Shown here one piece after another: positions 1,204-49,244 of a stretch of 64,000 nucleotides of DNA. The stretch covers positions 1,888,001 to 1,952,000 of the forward strand of contig OZ250186.1 in NCBI GenBank assembly GCA_965238275.1. The letters are read 5' to 3'. Numbering within the stretch: position 1 is the first letter of the stretch; each line of letters opens with the position of its first letter. A model generated the notes under the pieces. It was not told the DNA's origin and ran no database searches. It was given only the letters and a program-made list of their open reading frames with translations. This DNA comes from Nitrosopumilus sp. Its GTDB lineage: Archaea > Thermoproteota > Nitrososphaeria > Nitrososphaerales > Nitrosopumilaceae. Made by a program: the position numbers and the translations under genes.

Positions 1204-2647
1204 GTAATCGGATTAAAGATCCGGAAAAGCCCACTCACGTGATTTAGATCCATGGCAGCCCGGTGCACTCCCATGAGCATGCCGGCACGGGTTGCCGCAC
1301 CACTAATGATAACTTGCCCGATAATTTCCGGCAGGTCCAATCCTTCCCGTAGAATTTTCTGCTCAGGGCATGGCTCTCGGCAGGTTGCGGCGTTCGGATG
1401 CGGAGTGTCTGGGTACGATCACGCATTCAACGACCGGCGGGTCAGGCAGTGCGGTTTGGGGGTTCCACAGGTATGCGCCGCGCCTTCTTCCATGGCCCCC
1501 TCTGGGGGCCGATGGCCTCAAACACATAATGGATCAGTTTTGCTATGGCGACCTCCCCGCTGCGCAGCAGCTGTCTGATTCTCTTCTGCAGCTCGTCGAA
1601 TCCGCCAAAGAAGGTTGCCGACAGTGCCCCCTTGAGCTCCCTCCACTCCACCTCGATGGAATTGTGCTGCGGTGTGCGCGGGGGCAGAAACCGCCGAACC
1701 ACGTCGCCTTTCGTGCTCTCAATGTACCTGTTCATCTCCTGGCTGGTGTGGGCTCCGGCGTTGTCCATTATTGCGTAGACTTTTCCGTACTTCCGCCGAA
1801 GGTGCTCCAAAAGGGCCTTTGCGCTCCCCGTGTTGGCAGACTCGTGGAACTGTATGTCCAGCGTGCCCCTGCCAAGGGCTCCTGCGACCTTGACGGTCTT
1901 CTTGGAGCAGTTGGTCTTGACCGTGTCCCTGCCGCCCCTGCGCCGTATGCCGCGCCTGGAGGCGGGGGAGTCGGCAAATCCGGCAAAATCGATGAATACT
2001 ATCTTGAAGCCGTTCCTGTCATACTCCCTCACCTGCCTGACCGTCTCCTCCACATATTCCGCCAGATCCTTCGCCGTGGCCGAGTTGTACGGCACGGGCC
2101 TAACCCCCCTGACTGAAAAATTCATCCTGCGCGTCAGCTTGAGCGCGCCGCTGTCGCTGTACCTGATCCCAAACGCGTTCAGGATGCGGCGGGCGACGAG
2201 CCTGCCCGTCCACGTATCGCGGAAAAAGCCGCTCTCCGTGGGATCCTTGTCGACATCCCTGTCAAGGGCCGCCCACTGCTCATCGGACAGGCGGCACGGC
2301 CTGCCGGGGCTCTTGCGGTCGTGCCTGTGCTCCAGGCCGCCTTCCTCCAGCCGCAGCAGCCAGTCGTGTACGGTGCTGATCGCCACCCCGATGGCGTTTG
2401 ATATGCTCTCCAGGATCTCGCCTTTCTTTCGGCGCATGGCCGCCTGCAGCATGGTTCTGGTCTTTCCGTGGGGTTCCCCCCTGTGCAGCTGCTCAAGTTC
2501 GGGCAGGCCGATGTCCGGGAGGAACCCGTCCCCGCGTTTTACCCTTTTCGACCGATCCATGAGGGTGCCGGGCACGGCGCCGATCTTAGTGTTTCGGTTT
2601 GACCAATTGTATACGGTCGCTCTTTTCCGGATCTTTAATCCGATTAC
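1204..2647 (-). mobile_element. IS630-family insertion sequence
   Basis: 26-bp TIR GTAATCGGATTAAAGATCCGGAAAAG at both ends; TA duplicated at 1202-1203 and 2648-2649. Confidence 0.92.
1442..2560 (-). CDS. IS630-family transposase
   Basis: HTH and PGRP motif, FIDFAG...IMDNAGAH...LPPRTPQHNSIE DDE core; start placed at MDRSKR inside the element. Confidence 0.88.
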   Translation of the reverse strand: MDRSKRVKRGDGFLPDIGLPELEQLHRGEPHGKTRTMLQAAMRRKKGEILESISNAIGVAISTVHDWLLRLEEGGLEHRHDRKSPGRPCRLSDEQWAALDRDVDKDPTESGFFRDTWTGRLVARRILNAFGIRYSDSGALKLTRRMNFSVRGVRPVPYNSATAKDLAEYVEETVRQVREYDRNGFKIVFIDFAGFADSPASRRGIRRRGGRDTVKTNCSKKTVKVAGALGRGTLDIQFHESANTGSAKALLEHLRRKYGKVYAIMDNAGAHTSQEMNRYIESTKGDVVRRFLPPRTPQHNSIEVEWRELKGALSATFFGGFDELQKRIRQLLRSGEVAIAKLIHYVFEAIGPQRGPWKKARRIPVEPPNRTA

Positions 2648-7855: not shown

Positions 7856-9124
7856 ACTGGAACTGTTCCATGATCGGGTGGCGTCAGGCAATCACAACCT
7901 GAATGCGTAACGCATAGTAGGGGCCAGAGCAATCCGATCACCGTGGGTCATTAATTCCACAAATTACCATGTCTCATGGGATAATCTACCCGTCATTACT
8001 ACAGTCAGATTGCCGCCGAGATACATTCAGATCACAGGCACACGCCCACGTGCTTATGATGATTGTAGCCGACGGAAAGCAAGGCGTTGCCGAATCAGTC
8101 CATCACGCAAAGGCAAGTTCAGTACCGGATTCCAGGCAAAAGAAGCTCGAGGTTGGATCCCGGTTCATGCCGAACGTGAGCAAAAAGAAGCTGGTGCGGG
8201 CGTGCGCAAAAGAGAAGAACAAGCTGGCCAAGATCAGGCTGCTTGCGTGCATCCTGAGAAAGCAGGGACGCAGCATCCGGAATATATGCAAGGAACTGGT
8301 CATGCCGTATTCCACAGTGCGCGACTGGCTGGTGCGGATGCAGGGACGGGGGTTGAAAGCCCGGTTCAACCGAACGCGCGGGGGCAGGAAAAGCAAGATG
8401 CCCAAATCATTTTCCAGGACGGTTAGGGTGTGGCTTGGCAACAAGCCGAAAAAGTACGGATTCGAGTCAGGCTCCTGGCAGCTCAACTTGATACTGGAGA
8501 TGATCCGGCGGACGTTTGGACTGGATTGCTGCAAGGCGCGCACGTTGCGAAGGATGCTCAAAAAGATCGGGTTCTCTTACAGAAAACCCCGGCCCGTTCC
8601 GCCCAAATCCGCCTCCAAAAGCGAGCAAGAGGAGTTCAAGGCAAGGGCCGGCAGGAAGGCGGGGGATCTGGCCAATGGAGGATATGCCGTGTTCGTAGAA
8701 GACGAGGCTGCAGTCGGCATGTCGCAGGAACCGGGCTACGGGTGGAGGCCCACGGGAGGACGCGACGAGATCCAGACTGGGTTCTCGAAAAAGGCCGTCA
8801 GCCTGCTTGGCATCATGGGCACAGACACCCTCTACGTCCGCATGGCGGATTCTGCAAACTCGGAGACGTTCAAGGAATTCCTCGAGGATGTCCGCAAGAG
8901 CCACCCAAAATTCTACATGGTTCTGGACAACGCGTCGTACCACAAGTCGCACAAGGTCAGAGAATACGTGGCCGGCACGGGCGGTGACGTCGAGCTGGAA
9001 TTTCTCCCGCCCCGCACGCCGCAGCTGAACCAGATCGAAAACGTCTGGAGGGATCTCAAGAGACGGCTGGCAGGCCGGTACTTTGAGTCACCGGAGGAGC
9101 TAAAGGCGGCAATAGCGATAATCC

Positions 9125-31781: not shown

Positions 31782-32110
31782 TATACTAACGATCAAAAGT
31801 CTGTGCAGTGTCATATTTCCGGCTGGTAAAGTTGAGAAGGTCAAGCTTGAACCGGACGGTTCGATAATACAACGAAACAGCCAGGTGCATGTCTTGGAAT
31901 GTCTTGTAATATTCGGAGACCAGCAGGATGCGCTTTTCCTGGTGCCAGCATTCCTCCATCGCGTTGAGGTACGGCGAACACTTTGGTAAATAGATCATCT
32001 TGACGTCCCTGTTGTTACGCAGAAACTCCTTTACCATTTTTGAGCGGTGCTGCGGTGCCCGGTCTGCTGTCACTGCCACCAGAGATTTGAGGTGGATAGC
32101 CAGCAAGAGC
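31782..32110 (-). pseudogene. IS630 3' remnant including its terminal sequence
   Basis: ADRAPQHRS...YLPKCSPYLNAMEECW; ends at TATACTAACGATCAAAAGTCTGTGCAG. Confidence 0.75.
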
Positions 32111-32120
32111 TGAAACGTGT

Positions 32121-32290
32121 TCAGCAATAATGCTTCTTGAACCCTCCGATGTGTATGAATGAGGAACCGCACTTGGGGCACCTGAACGGCCTGGCAGGAT
32201 CGCCAGAGAGTATGCACGGCGGGACCACGTCGTTGCCGTGTGTTTTGCCGCAGAACCTGCATGCCATGGTGGACGTGGGGCACGGCACGT
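32121..32290 (-). pseudogene. IS6-like zinc-ribbon remnant
   Basis: CRFCG...FRCPKCGSSF..GFKKH resembles the ribbon of 6129-7274. Confidence 0.45.
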
Positions 32291-43041: not shown

Positions 43042-44166
43042 ATGTTCGGAAGAAAGAGGCAAAAGCAGCAGGAGGTTTCCGACACCAGTGTCCGCACCCA
43101 CGAGTCCGGATATATCATGCGGATCGGCGAGAGCCTGGTGCTGGCTCAGGAAGCCACGTCTCCAGAGGGCAACGGCTGGTTGTTGGCGACCAACAAGTCG
43201 CTTTTCTTCATCCACGGCAGCCGAGGCGTCTACCTGTACTTGGATCACGGCATGATCAAGTCGTTGGGGAACGAGAAGGGTAAGATTACCATCAAGTGGC
43301 TGGAGAAGGGTCGGCAGTTCGAGTTCCAGATGAGGCTGAAAGATGGGTTTTATACACCAAACGAGGCAGTCAACACACTCAACACGCGGTTCCAATACGC
43401 GGGGTCGGCATTCGAGCACATCGAACTGACCGGGAAGGAGATCTGGGAAGCCAGGAAAGACAGGCTTGAACGCATAGGACGGATATTGGGAAACATACGG
43501 AAGGAAGTAACCAGGCTGCAGCAGAAGAAAGAACTGGACCAAGAAGAACAGAAGGACCTAAAACGGGCCTTGTTCCATCAAACCGCGGCCGCCAAAAACG
43601 AGAGGTGTATTACGTCCATGCCGTTCGTGCGTTCTGCCAAGGTTCCAGCGCACGTTCCGCTTACCATGGTCTGGAATGATTGTTACTTTGACAACAAGAG
43701 GAAGTTGTACGTTACGTTCCGTAGGTTCCGCAACGGCTTGGGTCCGGAAACACTGGCCGACCAGAAGAAGTTGAATCCGGACGGTGAAGGCACGGTGTTT
43801 CCCATAGACATGGTGGACTTTCGTCACGGCTACCCCGCTATCGAAGTGAAGACCGAAGACGGGCACTATACTGCCAGCCTGTTGTGCACCATGGCCGAGG
43901 AGATGATTACCGAAGAGCTTGTCACTGCACTGTTGGGCACCCACGTTTCCTGGGACAACAGCGAAGAGGCGTACATGGGGCGGGTCTGGTACGAGACCGA
44001 AGCCACGCGCTGGATAGGGGGAGGCTTCTTCAAGATGACGGACGCCGAACGCGAAAAAGCGATAAAACACATTCCGTGGCTGAAAAACACCAATGATCCG
44101 GGCATTCCCTGGACAAAACCGTACAAGATCATTCCATTGAATGAAGGACAAGCAGCCAAACTGTAG
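43042..44166 (+). CDS. hypothetical protein (possible PH-like N-terminus, coiled coil, unknown C-terminal domain)
   Basis: 374 aa; GWLLATNKSLFF beta-rich motif; clear paralog at 46557-47335. Confidence 0.75.
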   Translation: MFGRKRQKQQEVSDTSVRTHESGYIMRIGESLVLAQEATSPEGNGWLLATNKSLFFIHGSRGVYLYLDHGMIKSLGNEKGKITIKWLEKGRQFEFQMRLKDGFYTPNEAVNTLNTRFQYAGSAFEHIELTGKEIWEARKDRLERIGRILGNIRKEVTRLQQKKELDQEEQKDLKRALFHQTAAAKNERCITSMPFVRSAKVPAHVPLTMVWNDCYFDNKRKLYVTFRRFRNGLGPETLADQKKLNPDGEGTVFPIDMVDFRHGYPAIEVKTEDGHYTASLLCTMAEEMITEELVTALLGTHVSWDNSEEAYMGRVWYETEATRWIGGGFFKMTDAEREKAIKHIPWLKNTNDPGIPWTKPYKIIPLNEGQAAKL

Positions 44167-45149: not shown

Positions 45150-46496
45150 TTATCGGGGCCTGCCGGCAGTCCGGCGACTCCGAGCAATTTGAGATATCAC
45201 AAGACAGCCGCGCACTGGCGGTTCCTTCCTTGGAAGCCCGAACAAACGGGCGCCGTCCTCATGCTTGACGACGGCCATACCTGCCGCCGCGCCTCCCCGA
45301 ACCGATATGTTCACGGAGGCGTTTTCGTCCGCGTTCATTACGGACCTGCAACACGTGCAGTGGAAATCTGCCTGGTTTTCCCGGGATCTGGAATCTGTCG
45401 TTCCGCACCGGCAACATGTTTGGGACGTGTATGCTGCGGGCACAGTTTCATGGAGCGTGCCACTTTTTCTACAGCCCCATTCTATCGTATCCAGAAGGGA
45501 GCCGACGCGGGCGTATGCCATGCTGCGGTTCAAACCACGGTTACCCGGTGTGTCGTATTTTCGCTTCGCCATTGCCTGAAGGTTGAGATCCTCCACGACT
45601 ATCTTGCCGGCAAGTCCGGACAAAAAGCTCGCAGCCTGGCGCTCCCAGTTTTGGGCGCGGTTTGCAATCTTTTTGGCCTTGGTCTGGATTCTCCGGGTTA
45701 TTGATTTGTAATCCCGGGAGCCGCGCTTTTTCTTGGCTCGCTTGGAGTACAGTCTGGCAATGTCATCGTCCTTGTACCTTCTTGCATTTTCGGGCGGATC
45801 CATGAACCAGACGTGGTTGGTTCCGTCCTGCTGGAGCGAGACTGCCAGCGCGTGCTTTACGCCTGCGTCTATGCCGATAATCGGCCCGCCCACCTTCTTC
45901 TTCGGGGGATCGGGCTCGCGTATGCTGACGTGCAGTTCAATGTGGCCGTTCTTCCTTGTTAACGAGTACGACCGCATGTCCATGTCAGGCAGTCTGCGCG
46001 CGAGTTGGACTTGGCCAACGCCTGGAAGGTACAGCTTTCCACCATTCCGTGGTTTGGGTGTGGCCTGAGATATTACGGTATGCTGATTCTTGAACAATGT
46101 TTCGGGGTTCTTGCATCGTGGCTTGCGGCCGTCTTTGGCCAGTTTGCTTCTGGACCATCGCTTCTTCATGTTGGAGTATAGAAAACTGGAAACCGTTTCG
46201 CGCGCGCGGCAGCACGCGGCTCTCTGCAGGAGCGCGGGTCCCAGATTTTTGCCGCGCCTGAACTCGGTAAGCTTGTAATACGAATGGTACGTTCCGGGCA
46301 GGCTCGTCCATACCAGTCCGGGTATGGAATCCGGCTCCGCGCCCTGTTCCTCCAAAAACTCCCGCACGGTTTCTGCCTCGTCGTAGTACCACGCGACGGC
46401 GTGCTTGTAGACAATATCGTAATTTTTCCGCGCAGTCTCGAAGGAATCCTCGAACCTGGAATCATAGTATATTGGCACGCGGACGGTCTTGTACAT
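45150..46496 (-). CDS. tnpB: TnpB-family RNA-guided endonuclease
   Basis: RuvC-I IGIDAGV, RuvC-II VVEDL, YTSQTCCRCG..FHCTCC zinc finger, RuvC-III NADENASVNI. Confidence 0.88.
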   Translation of the reverse strand: MYKTVRVPIYYDSRFEDSFETARKNYDIVYKHAVAWYYDEAETVREFLEEQGAEPDSIPGLVWTSLPGTYHSYYKLTEFRRGKNLGPALLQRAACCRARETVSSFLYSNMKKRWSRSKLAKDGRKPRCKNPETLFKNQHTVISQATPKPRNGGKLYLPGVGQVQLARRLPDMDMRSYSLTRKNGHIELHVSIREPDPPKKKVGGPIIGIDAGVKHALAVSLQQDGTNHVWFMDPPENARRYKDDDIARLYSKRAKKKRGSRDYKSITRRIQTKAKKIANRAQNWERQAASFLSGLAGKIVVEDLNLQAMAKRKYDTPGNRGLNRSMAYARVGSLLDTIEWGCRKSGTLHETVPAAYTSQTCCRCGTTDSRSRENQADFHCTCCRSVMNADENASVNISVRGGAAAGMAVVKHEDGARLFGLPRKEPPVRGCLVISQIARSRRTAGRPR

Positions 46497-46556: not shown

Positions 46557-47335
46557 CTAGGGTTTGGCAGCCTGTTCCTCATTCAATGGGATGATCTTGT
46601 ACGGCTTGATCCATGGAATATCGGGGTTGTTGGTGTATGCAAGCCAGGGCAGGTACTTCAAGCATATCTCCCGTTCTTTTTCCGTCAATTTGAAGAACTT
46701 GCCGCCTATCCGGCGCGGGGTCTCGGTCTCGTAATAGACAGAGCCCATGTTTATCAAGTCCTTTCTGTCAAAATAATGTTGAAGTTTAAACAATGTAATG
46801 ACAAGATCTTCTGTAATCATTTCCTCCGATAGTGTGCAGAGGATGCTGGTGCAATAATGACCATTTTTTGTCTCCCCTTGGAAAAGATCTAATGTTGCAA
46901 GTTTAAACAATGTAAGTGCCACTACCACTACCTGGATCATTTCCTCCGATACCGCTGGATATCCATAACAAAATGTCATTTCGCCCTGTGGGATCACTAC
47001 TCCCTCACAATCGGGATTGAGTTCCTTTTGGTTCGCTAGCATCTTTGGACCCAGGCCGTCGCGGAACTTGCGGAATGTGACGAAGACTTTCCTTTTTTTG
47101 TCATAATAACAATCATTCCAAATGTACTTGAGTGGGATATGGGCAGGGATTTTGGTAGATTTAACAACCGGCATCATTTCAGCATATTTTACATTTTGAC
47201 TGTAGTCTATCGCTAGACGTTGAAGAATCTCAAGTTCTTTTTTAGTCTCCTCGTTAAGTTGATCATTCTTTAGTTTTTCAATATCGTTCTGCAAATCCTC
47301 CAACTCCTTTTTATGAATACTAACCCTGTCCTTCC
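46557..47335 (-). pseudogene. paralog of 43042-44166, 5' part cut off by the tnpB element
   Basis: shared RKDR, WNDCY.D, FR.FR.GLGP, EEMITE.L, YETE, DIPW.KPYKIIPLNE.QAAK. Confidence 0.8.
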
Positions 47336-48783
47336 TATAGCGGCGAGCGAAAGTTCGTGCAAACAGATCTCTCTGTAGCATGTCCTGATGCTCTTTCCGG
47401 CGCTCTGTCAGACCTTCCAATATTGTCGTCGTTGTCGGATCCAAGCCGACCTGTCGAATTGTTCATTCCAGAACTATCCGATCCGTGATCCTCGCGCCTT
47501 GTGACGACCTCGACACCTGCAATGGTGCCTCCACGATTCCCGTGGGCTTGGCCGCCAGTCTCCTCCGTATGGAGACAGTCATTATCCAAAATGTTTTTTG
47601 CCGCGTTCTTGTCGGCATGGTGGCACCATCCGCATGAGACGCAGACAAATGATTCGCCGTTCCTGGATTTCTTGTCCACTACCCCGCAGGCAGCGCATCT
47701 CTGGCTTGTATGTGCGTGTTCCACGCGTCTTGAAATTCCGCCTTTCTTTTTCATCTGCCATTCAAGCTGGATCCTGAACTCGCCCATTCTGGAATAGGCC
47801 ATCTCGCGGTTCAACCCCGTCTTTGAAGCCGCCCCGTTGGATCGCCTCATCTTGGTCAAATCCAGATCTTCCAAGAACAATACGGACAGTCCTTTTGTTA
47901 TCCGCCTGGCAATGTCGATCTCGTTGTGTTTTTGCCTGTTTGATATCTTTTTCAATTCATGCGTTACCTTGCGGCCGATCTCTTTCCATCTTCTGGAGCC
48001 TGCCTGGCATCTTGATCTAAGTGATTTCAGCTGATCAATCCTGTCGCCGTCATGCCTCTTGCAGCCTCCGGGGACATTGTGCAGTTTTTCGTTCCCATGC
48101 TCGTCTGCGACTGCCGCAAGGTGCCTGACTCCAAGATCCAGCCCTGCCTTGCATCCGCCGCCGCCACCACCGCCTGTCGCGGGTTCGGGGTCTGGGACTT
48201 CTATCTGCAAATGCAGTTTGAATTCGCGATCACCATCCTTGGTCTTACGCGTGACCTTGCCTGTGGTGTCAATCATCTGGAATGACACGAGCCTGCCTTC
48301 CGGAGCCTTCGTGCGTGGCCTTGCTTCCCAGAGTCCGGGCAGAAATACGGCTCCACTGTCTCGCAGTTTTGGCTTTCCGCGTGAATTCAGCGAGCGCAGC
48401 CTGGTTGTTTTCCTGCCGCGCCTCATCAGGCTGGACGGCTCGGTCCACCGATTGTGCTTGTACGTCTTCTTGTTCCCCAGCTTGATCTGCTTCTTGCGCC
48501 AGATGCGCTTGTTGTGCTTGAGCCGGTTTGCCTTGCGGAATTTGACTGCCGCCTGGAAAGCCTGTTTTGAGGCGGCCTCATGCATGTGGACGCTGCTGGC
48601 CAGGTTGAATTCCCTGCGCCATCCTGTTATCAGGTTGTTGACATCAAACTGTGTGATCCGTGAGTGTGCAAGTTTCATCATGATTGTCATGTCGTAAATG
48701 ATGTCTGTTTCCCGGGAGCATTTCACGATCTTGCGTGACAGTTCCCGAGATTGTGTTATCTTGATGATTTTACTGACAATCAT
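47335..48783 (-). CDS. tnpB: TnpB-family RNA-guided endonuclease
   Basis: GLDLGV, LFLEDL, HTSQRCAACG..FVCVSCG, HADKNAAKNI; ~85-aa tail running to the element end. Confidence 0.88.
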   Translation of the reverse strand: MIVSKIIKITQSRELSRKIVKCSRETDIIYDMTIMMKLAHSRITQFDVNNLITGWRREFNLASSVHMHEAASKQAFQAAVKFRKANRLKHNKRIWRKKQIKLGNKKTYKHNRWTEPSSLMRRGRKTTRLRSLNSRGKPKLRDSGAVFLPGLWEARPRTKAPEGRLVSFQMIDTTGKVTRKTKDGDREFKLHLQIEVPDPEPATGGGGGGGCKAGLDLGVRHLAAVADEHGNEKLHNVPGGCKRHDGDRIDQLKSLRSRCQAGSRRWKEIGRKVTHELKKISNRQKHNEIDIARRITKGLSVLFLEDLDLTKMRRSNGAASKTGLNREMAYSRMGEFRIQLEWQMKKKGGISRRVEHAHTSQRCAACGVVDKKSRNGESFVCVSCGWCHHADKNAAKNILDNDCLHTEETGGQAHGNRGGTIAGVEVVTRREDHGSDSSGMNNSTGRLGSDNDDNIGRSDRAPERASGHATERSVCTNFRSPL

Positions 48784-48851
48784 ACCTGTAGTTGGGATTT
48801 ATTTTCTTAAAAAGGATCTCAAAAAATTGCACGAACTTTCGCTTTTCACTA
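47338..48851 (-). mobile_element. non-autonomous TIR element with IS630-type ends carrying only tnpB
   Basis: perfect 17-bp inverted core AGCGAAAGTTCGTGCAA (47346-47362, 48827-48843); CCTATAG at both termini; TA at 47336-47337 and 48852-48853. Confidence 0.78.
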
Positions 48852-49244
48852 TAGGATGCTGCCATACATCCCATGCATTTTTTGACACGTAATGCAGATA
48901 AGGGATCATGGACGTCGGGTGCGGGCTCCACGACAGCAACATGGAAGTCAAGGACTAGTGTCCTGCATGCGGTGCGTCTAAGACGGTACTGGTTCGTGTC
49001 CTGTTTGCCTGCAGCGATGGGCGGCCGTGGCAAAGTTGCCATTGGGCGGGAAAAATTTTTCCCATTCAATGGAAATCCGGGCAGCCGTGCAGAATTCGGC
49101 GTCATAAACTGCCGCCTGGCGTGCTGAAGGTGTATCTGGTGTGGATGCAAGGAATGCGTTGGCAACGGACAGAATCTCATAAAAGAAAGTTATAGCGCTC
49201 CCGCTATGCTGCTTAAATGCCGAGCGATTCTTGTCGGTGTGGGA

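Follow-up and report, generated by a model that had tools for sequence, protein, structure and literature searches.

TnpB nucleases in prokaryotic DDE cut-and-paste transposons have been reported but are rare. In the parts of Altae-Tran et al. 2023 (PNAS; PMC10691335) that deal with DDE-associated groups, IS630-associated TnpBs (branch DDE-6) are accompanied by a separate helix-turn-helix (HTH) protein and have symmetric ends. Inverted repeats are given there for all six DDE-associated groups, the 3' ends of TnpB are located within 250 bp of the transposon end, and DDE-6 members were noted in giant viruses. The same account takes solo TnpBs, whose ends are nearly identical to those of transposase-bearing systems, as mobilised by those transposases. 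A 2026 review (PMC13565253) repeats the IS630-TnpB association in its sections on this subject, and states that Fanzors read their 5' duplication as part of the target-adjacent motif (TAM). Fanzor1 and Fanzor2* are found in transposons that have terminal inverted repeats (TIRs) as well as target-site duplications (TSDs) (Yoon et al. 2023, PMC10711439; Jiang et al. 2023, PMC10530073), and according to the RNA data described by Yoon et al., Fanzor guide RNAs contain both repeat and duplication and reach about 15 nt further.

Here we describe a tnpB element in a 64,000-nt stretch of the Nitrosopumilus sp. contig OZ250186.1 (the window; window coordinates run from 1 to 64,000 over the analysed stretch, and genome coordinates, G000, refer to the whole closed chromosome that holds it). 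The host genome is closed in one contig of 2,216,668 bp, with 52.7% G+C and 99.9% completeness, and the archaeal small-subunit (SSU) model matched in it at full length. The left end (LE) is the element end on the 5' side of tnpB and the right end (RE) is that on its 3' side, and IS630-D is our working name for a resident IS630 subgroup with ends like those of the tnpB element. We consider it likely that the element is a non-autonomous member of an IS630-family lineage (Tc1/mariner-like, TA-duplicating and cut-and-paste), with a functional TnpB and its omegaRNA as the sole cargo.

Elements of this kind are already known, because IS630-linked TnpBs and solo copies taken to be mobilised in trans are reported in the description of PMC10691335; the statement of the initial annotation that prokaryotic TnpBs travel with IS605 or IS607 is therefore out of date. 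The mechanism proposed in that annotation is supported at every step that computation could address, while its novelty was overstated. Like DDE-6, the present locus contains a TnpB in an IS630-type transposon, symmetric inverted ends, a tnpB 3' end near the transposon end, and solo copies. As far as the published description sets the two apart, TnpB, DDE transposase and a separate HTH protein share one element in DDE-6, an arrangement that was not found here: none of 17 two-ended copies holds a transposase, the partner is a compact insertion sequence (IS) of 1.1 kb that encodes HTH and DDE in one protein, and the hosts belong to a single archaeal genus. In this archaeal lineage the kind takes the form of a strictly non-autonomous family accompanied by a compact autonomous IS, and the additions made here are a flank signature and an RNA model.

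Structure of the tnpB element

The tnpB element (window 47336–48853) is about 1.5 kb long, with 25-nt inverted ends, a TA duplication and a single gene. The RE repeat, TAGCGGCGAGCGAAAGTTCGTGCAA, is located at 47338–47362 (forward strand) and is kept at 24 RE-type ends of the genome. The LE repeat, TAGTGAAAAGCGAAAGTTCGTGCAA when read inward, is located at 48827–48851 (reverse strand), as identified by inverted-repeat search and from genome-wide ends. The complementarity between the 30-nt arms 47333–47362 and 48827–48856 is 87%, and the 17-nt core, already described as perfect in the initial annotation, is present at exactly two places in the window, both free of mismatches, against an expectation of 0.16 at up to 3 mismatches. 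TA flanks the element on both sides, as previously noted, at 47336–47337 (RE) and 48852–48853 (LE). The ends had been given as CCTATAG; the TATAG part of this holds, while the outer C (47335) and G (48854) are counted as flank, because the conservation of the 44 family ends found genome-wide starts at TA plus TAG. TA precedes TAG at 43 of the 44.

The only long open reading frame (ORF) between the inverted ends is tnpB (47335–48783, reverse strand, 482 aa), which agrees with the single gene reported before. Its reading frame runs through the RE repeat, and the stop codon TAG is composed of the duplicated TA and a flank G; the earlier reading, that the ORF passes the TIR and stops on the TA, is confirmed by the sequence. 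An A/T-rich box (CCTTTTTAAG; 48816–48807, reverse strand) had also been pointed out inside the other end, and we located it about 28 nt 5' of the tnpB ATG. Similar boxes stand 5' of the ATG in related elements, and the box may serve as an archaeal TATA box for a leaderless tnpB mRNA.

Element copies and target-site duplication

By blastn, the element matches its own genome in 33 pieces with 66–100% identity. A mismatch scan of the genome for the ends gave 20 LE and 24 RE ends, which form 17 two-ended elements, every one with different flanks. All of them are 1.5–1.7 kb long, except one copy of 3.4 kb with a nested insertion. TnpB residues 1–482 are spanned without a stop at eleven places in the genome, and near-identical copies (97–99%) occupy different sites, while several copies are truncated or contain stops or insertions. 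Because tnpB is the sole long ORF and no two-ended copy holds a transposase, the element is non-autonomous, as had been proposed. The genome-wide check of the ends suggested earlier thus showed tnpB-filled copies with different flanks.

That the TA is duplicated, and does not belong to the repeat, is shown in three ways. The copy at genome 708710–710215 reads flank-TA-element-TA-flank, and two paralogous sites hold the same flanks exactly 2 bp apart; one diverged tnpB copy has TG on each side as a direct repeat; and an IS630-D copy (D1873372) lies within a (TAC)n run that regains its period when a single TA is retained. The TA duplication claimed for the window copy is thereby borne out for the family, at the paralogous empty sites of another copy. 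For the window locus itself, the flank 46557–47333 has no match in 30 related genomes, and therefore there is no orthologous empty site to compare.

Two copies, at genome 614931–616532 and 642579–645958, have a common 91-bp insertion at element position 540, which suggests that this variant may have transposed after gaining the insertion. The left repeat of the second is moreover interrupted by a further nested insertion of about 1.8 kb.

Resident IS630 elements and the candidate transposase

In the closed genome, no match to Y1_Tnp (PF01797) or Resolvase (PF00239) was found, while 34 DDE_3 matches fall into several IS630 subgroups. Among these, IS630-D is about 1.1 kb long and its ends are homologous to those of the tnpB element: TA TAGTGGCGATCAAAAGTTCTTGCAAAA compared with TA TAGCGGCGAGCGAAAGTTCGTGCAAAC at the tnpB RE, which is identical to the right end of the IS630-D copy D1873372 at 24 of 28 positions. 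The ends of the remaining subgroups (at least three, with many copies) are unrelated. The IS630-D copy D1873372 (locus L030:765–1829, reverse strand) encodes an open HTH-DDE_3 protein of 354 aa in one fused polypeptide, with 175 bits to the NCBIfam IS630 equivalog (cut-off 100), and the other three IS630-D copies of the genome are broken or partial, which leaves a single intact transposase. The tnpB element shows the inverted ends and the TA duplication of the IS630 family, has ends homologous to those of a transposase-bearing IS, and lacks a DDE transposase of its own. A remnant in the window (31782–32196, reverse strand; R-type end at 31784 and DDE_3 remnant at 31888–32196, from the end scan and the DDE_3 match) belongs to IS630-D as well. 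Its end at 31782–31808 had been aligned with the tnpB element end, and our own count on the sequences gives the same 18 identical positions in 27. DDE_3 matches of two other IS630 subgroups, with different ends, are located in the window at 1589–2002 (reverse strand) and 8695–9105 (forward strand), and IS630 elements are abundant throughout the genome.

The element resembles IS630 and its derivatives similar to miniature inverted-repeat transposable elements (MITEs) in its TA duplication, in its inverted ends of 25–30 nt, and in the presence of many non-autonomous copies against one intact transposase gene. The difference is that MITE-like derivatives carry nothing, whereas the cargo here is an RNA-guided nuclease under purifying selection.

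The same pairing exists outside the host genome. A second (sister) genome of the same genus contains about 15–18 tnpB elements in two subfamilies, whose TnpBs are only 45–57% identical and whose ends are TA followed by TACTGACGCGCAAAAGTT- or TAGTGACGAGCAAAAGTT-type sequences. It also has IS630-D elements with such ends, and their transposases are 59–63% identical to that of the host genome. A third source, one further record, holds one tnpB copy at 73% identity. Among the 101 genomes of the host genus that were searched, TnpB was detected at E 1e-30 or better in three, and IS630-D at 58% identity or more in two of those three only. These sequences point to an old pairing of tnpB elements and IS630-D; the kin genomes are not independent, and the co-occurrence therefore counts as supportive only.

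In the same frame, the IS630-D transposases (L030:765–1829, reverse strand, and L062) and TnpB (window 47335–47362) read through the right repeat, ending in ...CKNF, ...CTNF and ...CTNFRSPL, respectively. Many of the tnpB loci in the sister genome (L008, L011, L017, L019, L021, L023 and L025) contain one or two in-frame TAG codons and are otherwise open.

TnpB protein and its relatives

The 482-aa protein matches Pfam OrfB_IS605 with 44.7 bits (cut-off 30.5) and Cas12f1-like_TNB with 59.9 bits (cut-off 26.3), and reaches 115.9 bits against the cut-off of 100 for NCBIfam guided_TnpB (NF040570). It aligns with the ISDra2 TnpB structures 8bf8/8exa. The full D/E/D triad and the zinc finger seen in the initial annotation correspond to D216, E305 and D391 and to C363/C366/C381/C384, all of which are invariant across 11 relatives with 45–90% identity. 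The ratio of nonsynonymous to synonymous divergence (dN/dS) is 0.14–0.21 over residues 1–400, and tnpB is under purifying selection. Over residues 400–482 the synonymous divergence (dS) falls and dN/dS climbs to 0.34–0.73, as expected for a tail constrained as RNA.

The family is narrow. A word-indexed search for TnpB kin gave 24 clusters at 45–97% identity and then nothing above 34%, while a profile search gave 69 representatives at E 1e-30 or better. The search of genome contigs found loci in two records only, and that of viral contigs found none. Among 80 loci of more distant relatives (24–61% identity), none has an IS630-D-like gene within 3 kb. The profile built from distant relatives was too divergent for the locus scan, for which the protein P0035 was used as the query instead.

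A second TnpB gene (window 45150–46496, reverse strand, 448 aa) is located 840 bp from the element; its product contains both Pfam domains and is 30% identical to the element TnpB (E 1e-39). For the other tnpB genes of the genome, at 10 places including this one, 10-mer seeds gave no inverted ends.

Predicted omegaRNA

The last 261 nt up to RE were aligned for 17 copies from the three genomes, and the conservation of this 3' DNA goes far beyond what the protein demands. RNAalifold predicted 51 pairs, 21 of them with compensatory changes, and one helix joins scaffold bases to bases within the inverted repeat. In this structure 96.9% of the cells are paired, compared with 32–46% with slid partners; double-change pairs number 21 against 2–5 in slid controls, which also give a covariation score of no more than 0.127, compared with 0.388 here. 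The slid control is biased in favour of the structure, which was derived from the same alignment; the number of compensatory pairs is still large. Because of this covariation and the RNA-like constraint of the tail, we place the scaffold at about 47338–47576 (reverse strand; the last ~240 nt), a position that fits an omegaRNA running over the TnpB C-terminal tail into the RE repeat. By covariation, a structured 3' RNA that reaches the transposon end, as in TnpB systems, is thus predicted here, and it overlaps both the 3' tail and the TIR, where the initial annotation had expected it. Directly 3' of the scaffold, the TA and the flank (47316–47337, reverse strand) are the predicted guide template, by analogy with the TnpB and Fanzor RNAs described in PMC10711439; the RE flanks differ in all copies.

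Rfam matched no family over 47200–49000, except a chance SECIS match at E 0.4, and column scans for a pseudoknot partner of the last repeat bases gave lineage-confounded matches only. A mosaic copy at genome 951043–952543 (locus L027) is nearly identical to the window copy in its last ~250 nt (RNA and RE; dS 0), while dS is 0.88 over the rest of tnpB, which suggests that the RNA module may have been recombined or converted between subfamilies. In one study, the contigs of four RNA-library runs span the element with 95–99% identity and part from the window at 47334–47336 and at 48854.

Flank signature and proposed mechanism

At every LE flank of the tnpB elements, the base that precedes the TA when read inward is C: 20 of 20 ends in the host genome, 14 of 14 in the second genome, where each place was counted once, and the single end of the third record, 35 of 35 altogether. 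In the window copy this is position 48854 on the tnpB (reverse) strand, a candidate TAM position. On the RE side, C is found at 10 of 24, 7 of 17 and 0 of 1 ends (17 of 42; Fisher test against LE, 2e-9). For the transposase-bearing IS630-D elements the number is 9 of 21 ends (L 5/10, R 4/11), and the tnpB LE differs both from all of these ends (5e-7) and from the L ends (2e-4). The C comes from the target, because the paralogous empty sites also carry it. IS630 favours CTAG targets. The general enrichment of C would fit this taste, with an additional invariance found only on the side expected for a TnpB TAM, and the C together with the 5' TA may be read as part of a TAM that acts as a filter. 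At the occupied RE junction an A takes this place (…CTA-TA), so that the junction would escape cleavage.

A mechanism can be proposed on this basis. The IS630-D transposase would move the tnpB element in trans. The RNA would be transcribed past the TA into the flank, which would supply the guide. TnpB would then cut the empty site (flank-C-TA-flank), after excision or on the sister chromosome, and recombination would restore the element. If the invariant C belongs to the TAM, retention would be limited to insertions that have it. The geometry would be that of IS605 and Fanzor elements, with the TAM beside the left end and the guide beside the right end. With Fanzor1 and Fanzor2*, as described in the cited parts of those studies, the element has in common that it is non-autonomous, bounded by TIRs and loaded with a nuclease only, that its predicted scaffold includes repeat bases, and that Fanzor RNA runs past the duplication. 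Fanzors, however, are proteins of eukaryotes or viruses and their active site is derived, while the D/E/D triad here is canonical, and the element TnpB is no closer to a mimivirus TnpB-like protein (E 4.7e-8) than to ISDra2 TnpB (E 4e-8).

Several points weigh against this picture. Transposition, excision, RNA and cleavage are predictions from sequence, and the RNA-library contigs cannot establish transcription, strand or RNA ends and may stem from other copies. The best transposase-bearing ends differ from the tnpB ends at 4 of 28 positions, and this genome contains only one intact IS630-D transposase. The flank C is enriched at other ends too (26 of 63, against a background of 0.26), and it clusters in autonomous subgroups, at 3 of 4 L ends of one subgroup in the second genome and at 4 of 4 R-type ends of one subgroup in the host genome. 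T at position -5 is enriched at both ends in the host genome (16/20 and 13/24), and so is not specific to LE. Neither the copies that share a genome nor those of kin are fully independent of one another. Finally, cut-and-paste excision itself leaves a break, and the gain from TnpB homing is accordingly debated in the passages of PMC13565253 on this point.

Alternative explanations

The clustering of C at one end in two autonomous subgroups keeps alive the explanation that the invariant C is due to a target preference that the transposase or transpososome shows at one end and is not a TAM of TnpB, the rest of the model being unchanged. The CTAG taste of IS630, the C at non-LE ends and the subgroup clustering given above all speak for it. 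On the other side, autonomous elements with a TACTGACGCGC-type left end have C at none of three L ends, while the tnpB elements with that same end have it at seven of seven; overall, C stands at 35 of 35 tnpB left ends compared with 5 of 10 L ends of autonomous elements, and the constrained side is the one that a TAM would occupy. We regard this preference as a real but minority possibility. It is unlikely that the mover is a transposase other than IS630-D, either of another IS630 subgroup of the genome or of one since lost. The four differing positions in the ends and the existence of at least three more IS630 subgroups with many copies would allow for such a mover, but the ends of those subgroups are unrelated, and it is the IS630-D end type that accompanies the tnpB elements in the second genome.

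Decay or domestication of TnpB, which would make the copies inert relics, would account for the truncations, stops and insertions in several copies; with eleven full open frames, invariant catalytic and zinc-finger residues, dN/dS of 0.14–0.21 and copies 97–99% identical at different sites, we find this very improbable. Still harder to credit is an IS200/IS605- or IS607-type element with incidental inverted ends, or a tnpB that landed once in a pre-existing MITE. TnpB is typically of IS605 or IS607 type, and the conserved motif beside the left end is reminiscent of IS605; the element also shares with IS200/IS605 modules such as ISDra2 the TnpB fold and catalytic residues, an RNA over the tnpB 3' end, and a variable right flank. 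However, the genome holds neither a Y1 TnpA nor the serine recombinase TnpA of IS607, and inverted ends with a 2-bp TA duplication take the place of the IS200/IS605 layout, which has hairpins and neither inverted ends nor duplication. Folding of LE gave no hairpin beyond shuffled sequences (z 0.90 and -0.24), and thus the IS605-type ends that would have spoken against the IS630 assignment were not seen at the left end, while an IS630 transposase with homologous ends was found in IS630-D. The protein scores only 90 bits to NCBIfam IS607_TnpB (cut-off 350) and likewise stays far under the cut-off of IS200_TnpB. The predicted RNA scaffold also forms pairs with the inverted repeat, a layout that persists across TnpBs only 45% identical in two genomes.

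Flanking gene and other repeats

Downstream of the element, a 258-aa C-terminal fragment of a gene from a paralogous family of unknown function (46557–47337, reverse strand) abuts RE. It is 42–45% identical to three paralogs, the alignment begins at the junction, and it matches no Pfam family. The initial annotation read the locus as a gene split by the element. The sequences it gave are correct, in that in silico excision yields WQHPRKDRV where the paralog reads EIWEARKDRL, while the case for a restored gene is weak: all three excision models keep the frames open, homology to a paralog could not be detected for the frame upstream of the element, and the N-terminal 137 aa of the paralog have no counterpart there. 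For these reasons a restored gene was not accepted as proof that the TA is duplicated. Truncation or rearrangement at the element may have shaped this locus. Members of the family are located in the window at 43042–44163 (forward strand), besides the fragment itself, and in the genome at 1123276–1124346 and 1735527–1736186, with a full copy of 374 aa. The element-side member, which lacks the N-terminal 137 aa, contains an internal duplication of about 117–120 bp at 46779–46951.

The mismatch scan also met an unrelated dispersed repeat at about 15221, 34088 and 59751 of the window (genome 1903221, 1922088 and 1947751) and at about 10 other genome sites, all of which share a 57-nt stretch.

Biological significance

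The review PMC13565253 asks why TnpB is so seldom paired with DDE transposases and how such elements profit from the nuclease, and in the sections of the literature on such pairings that we consulted, no dissection of the mechanism was found. The host and its sister genome constitute a compact natural system, with copies by the dozen, only one candidate transposase, a covariation-backed RNA model and a flank signature that predicts a TAM. With these four components, the question of homing versus excision becomes testable by ordinary assays. The system also offers a small archaeal TnpB with a short predicted TAM.

A bolder idea, which we hold only tentatively, is that the retention of the element depends on the nuclease: TnpB would read the C and the 5' TA as its TAM, only insertions with a cleavable empty site would survive, and the archaeal lineage would be a prokaryotic counterpart, possibly an origin model, of the Fanzor arrangement. 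If true, nuclease-dependent retention would explain the C in 35 of 35 copies, and the duplication and the repeat would be built into guide RNA and TAM, as they are in the Fanzor arrangement.

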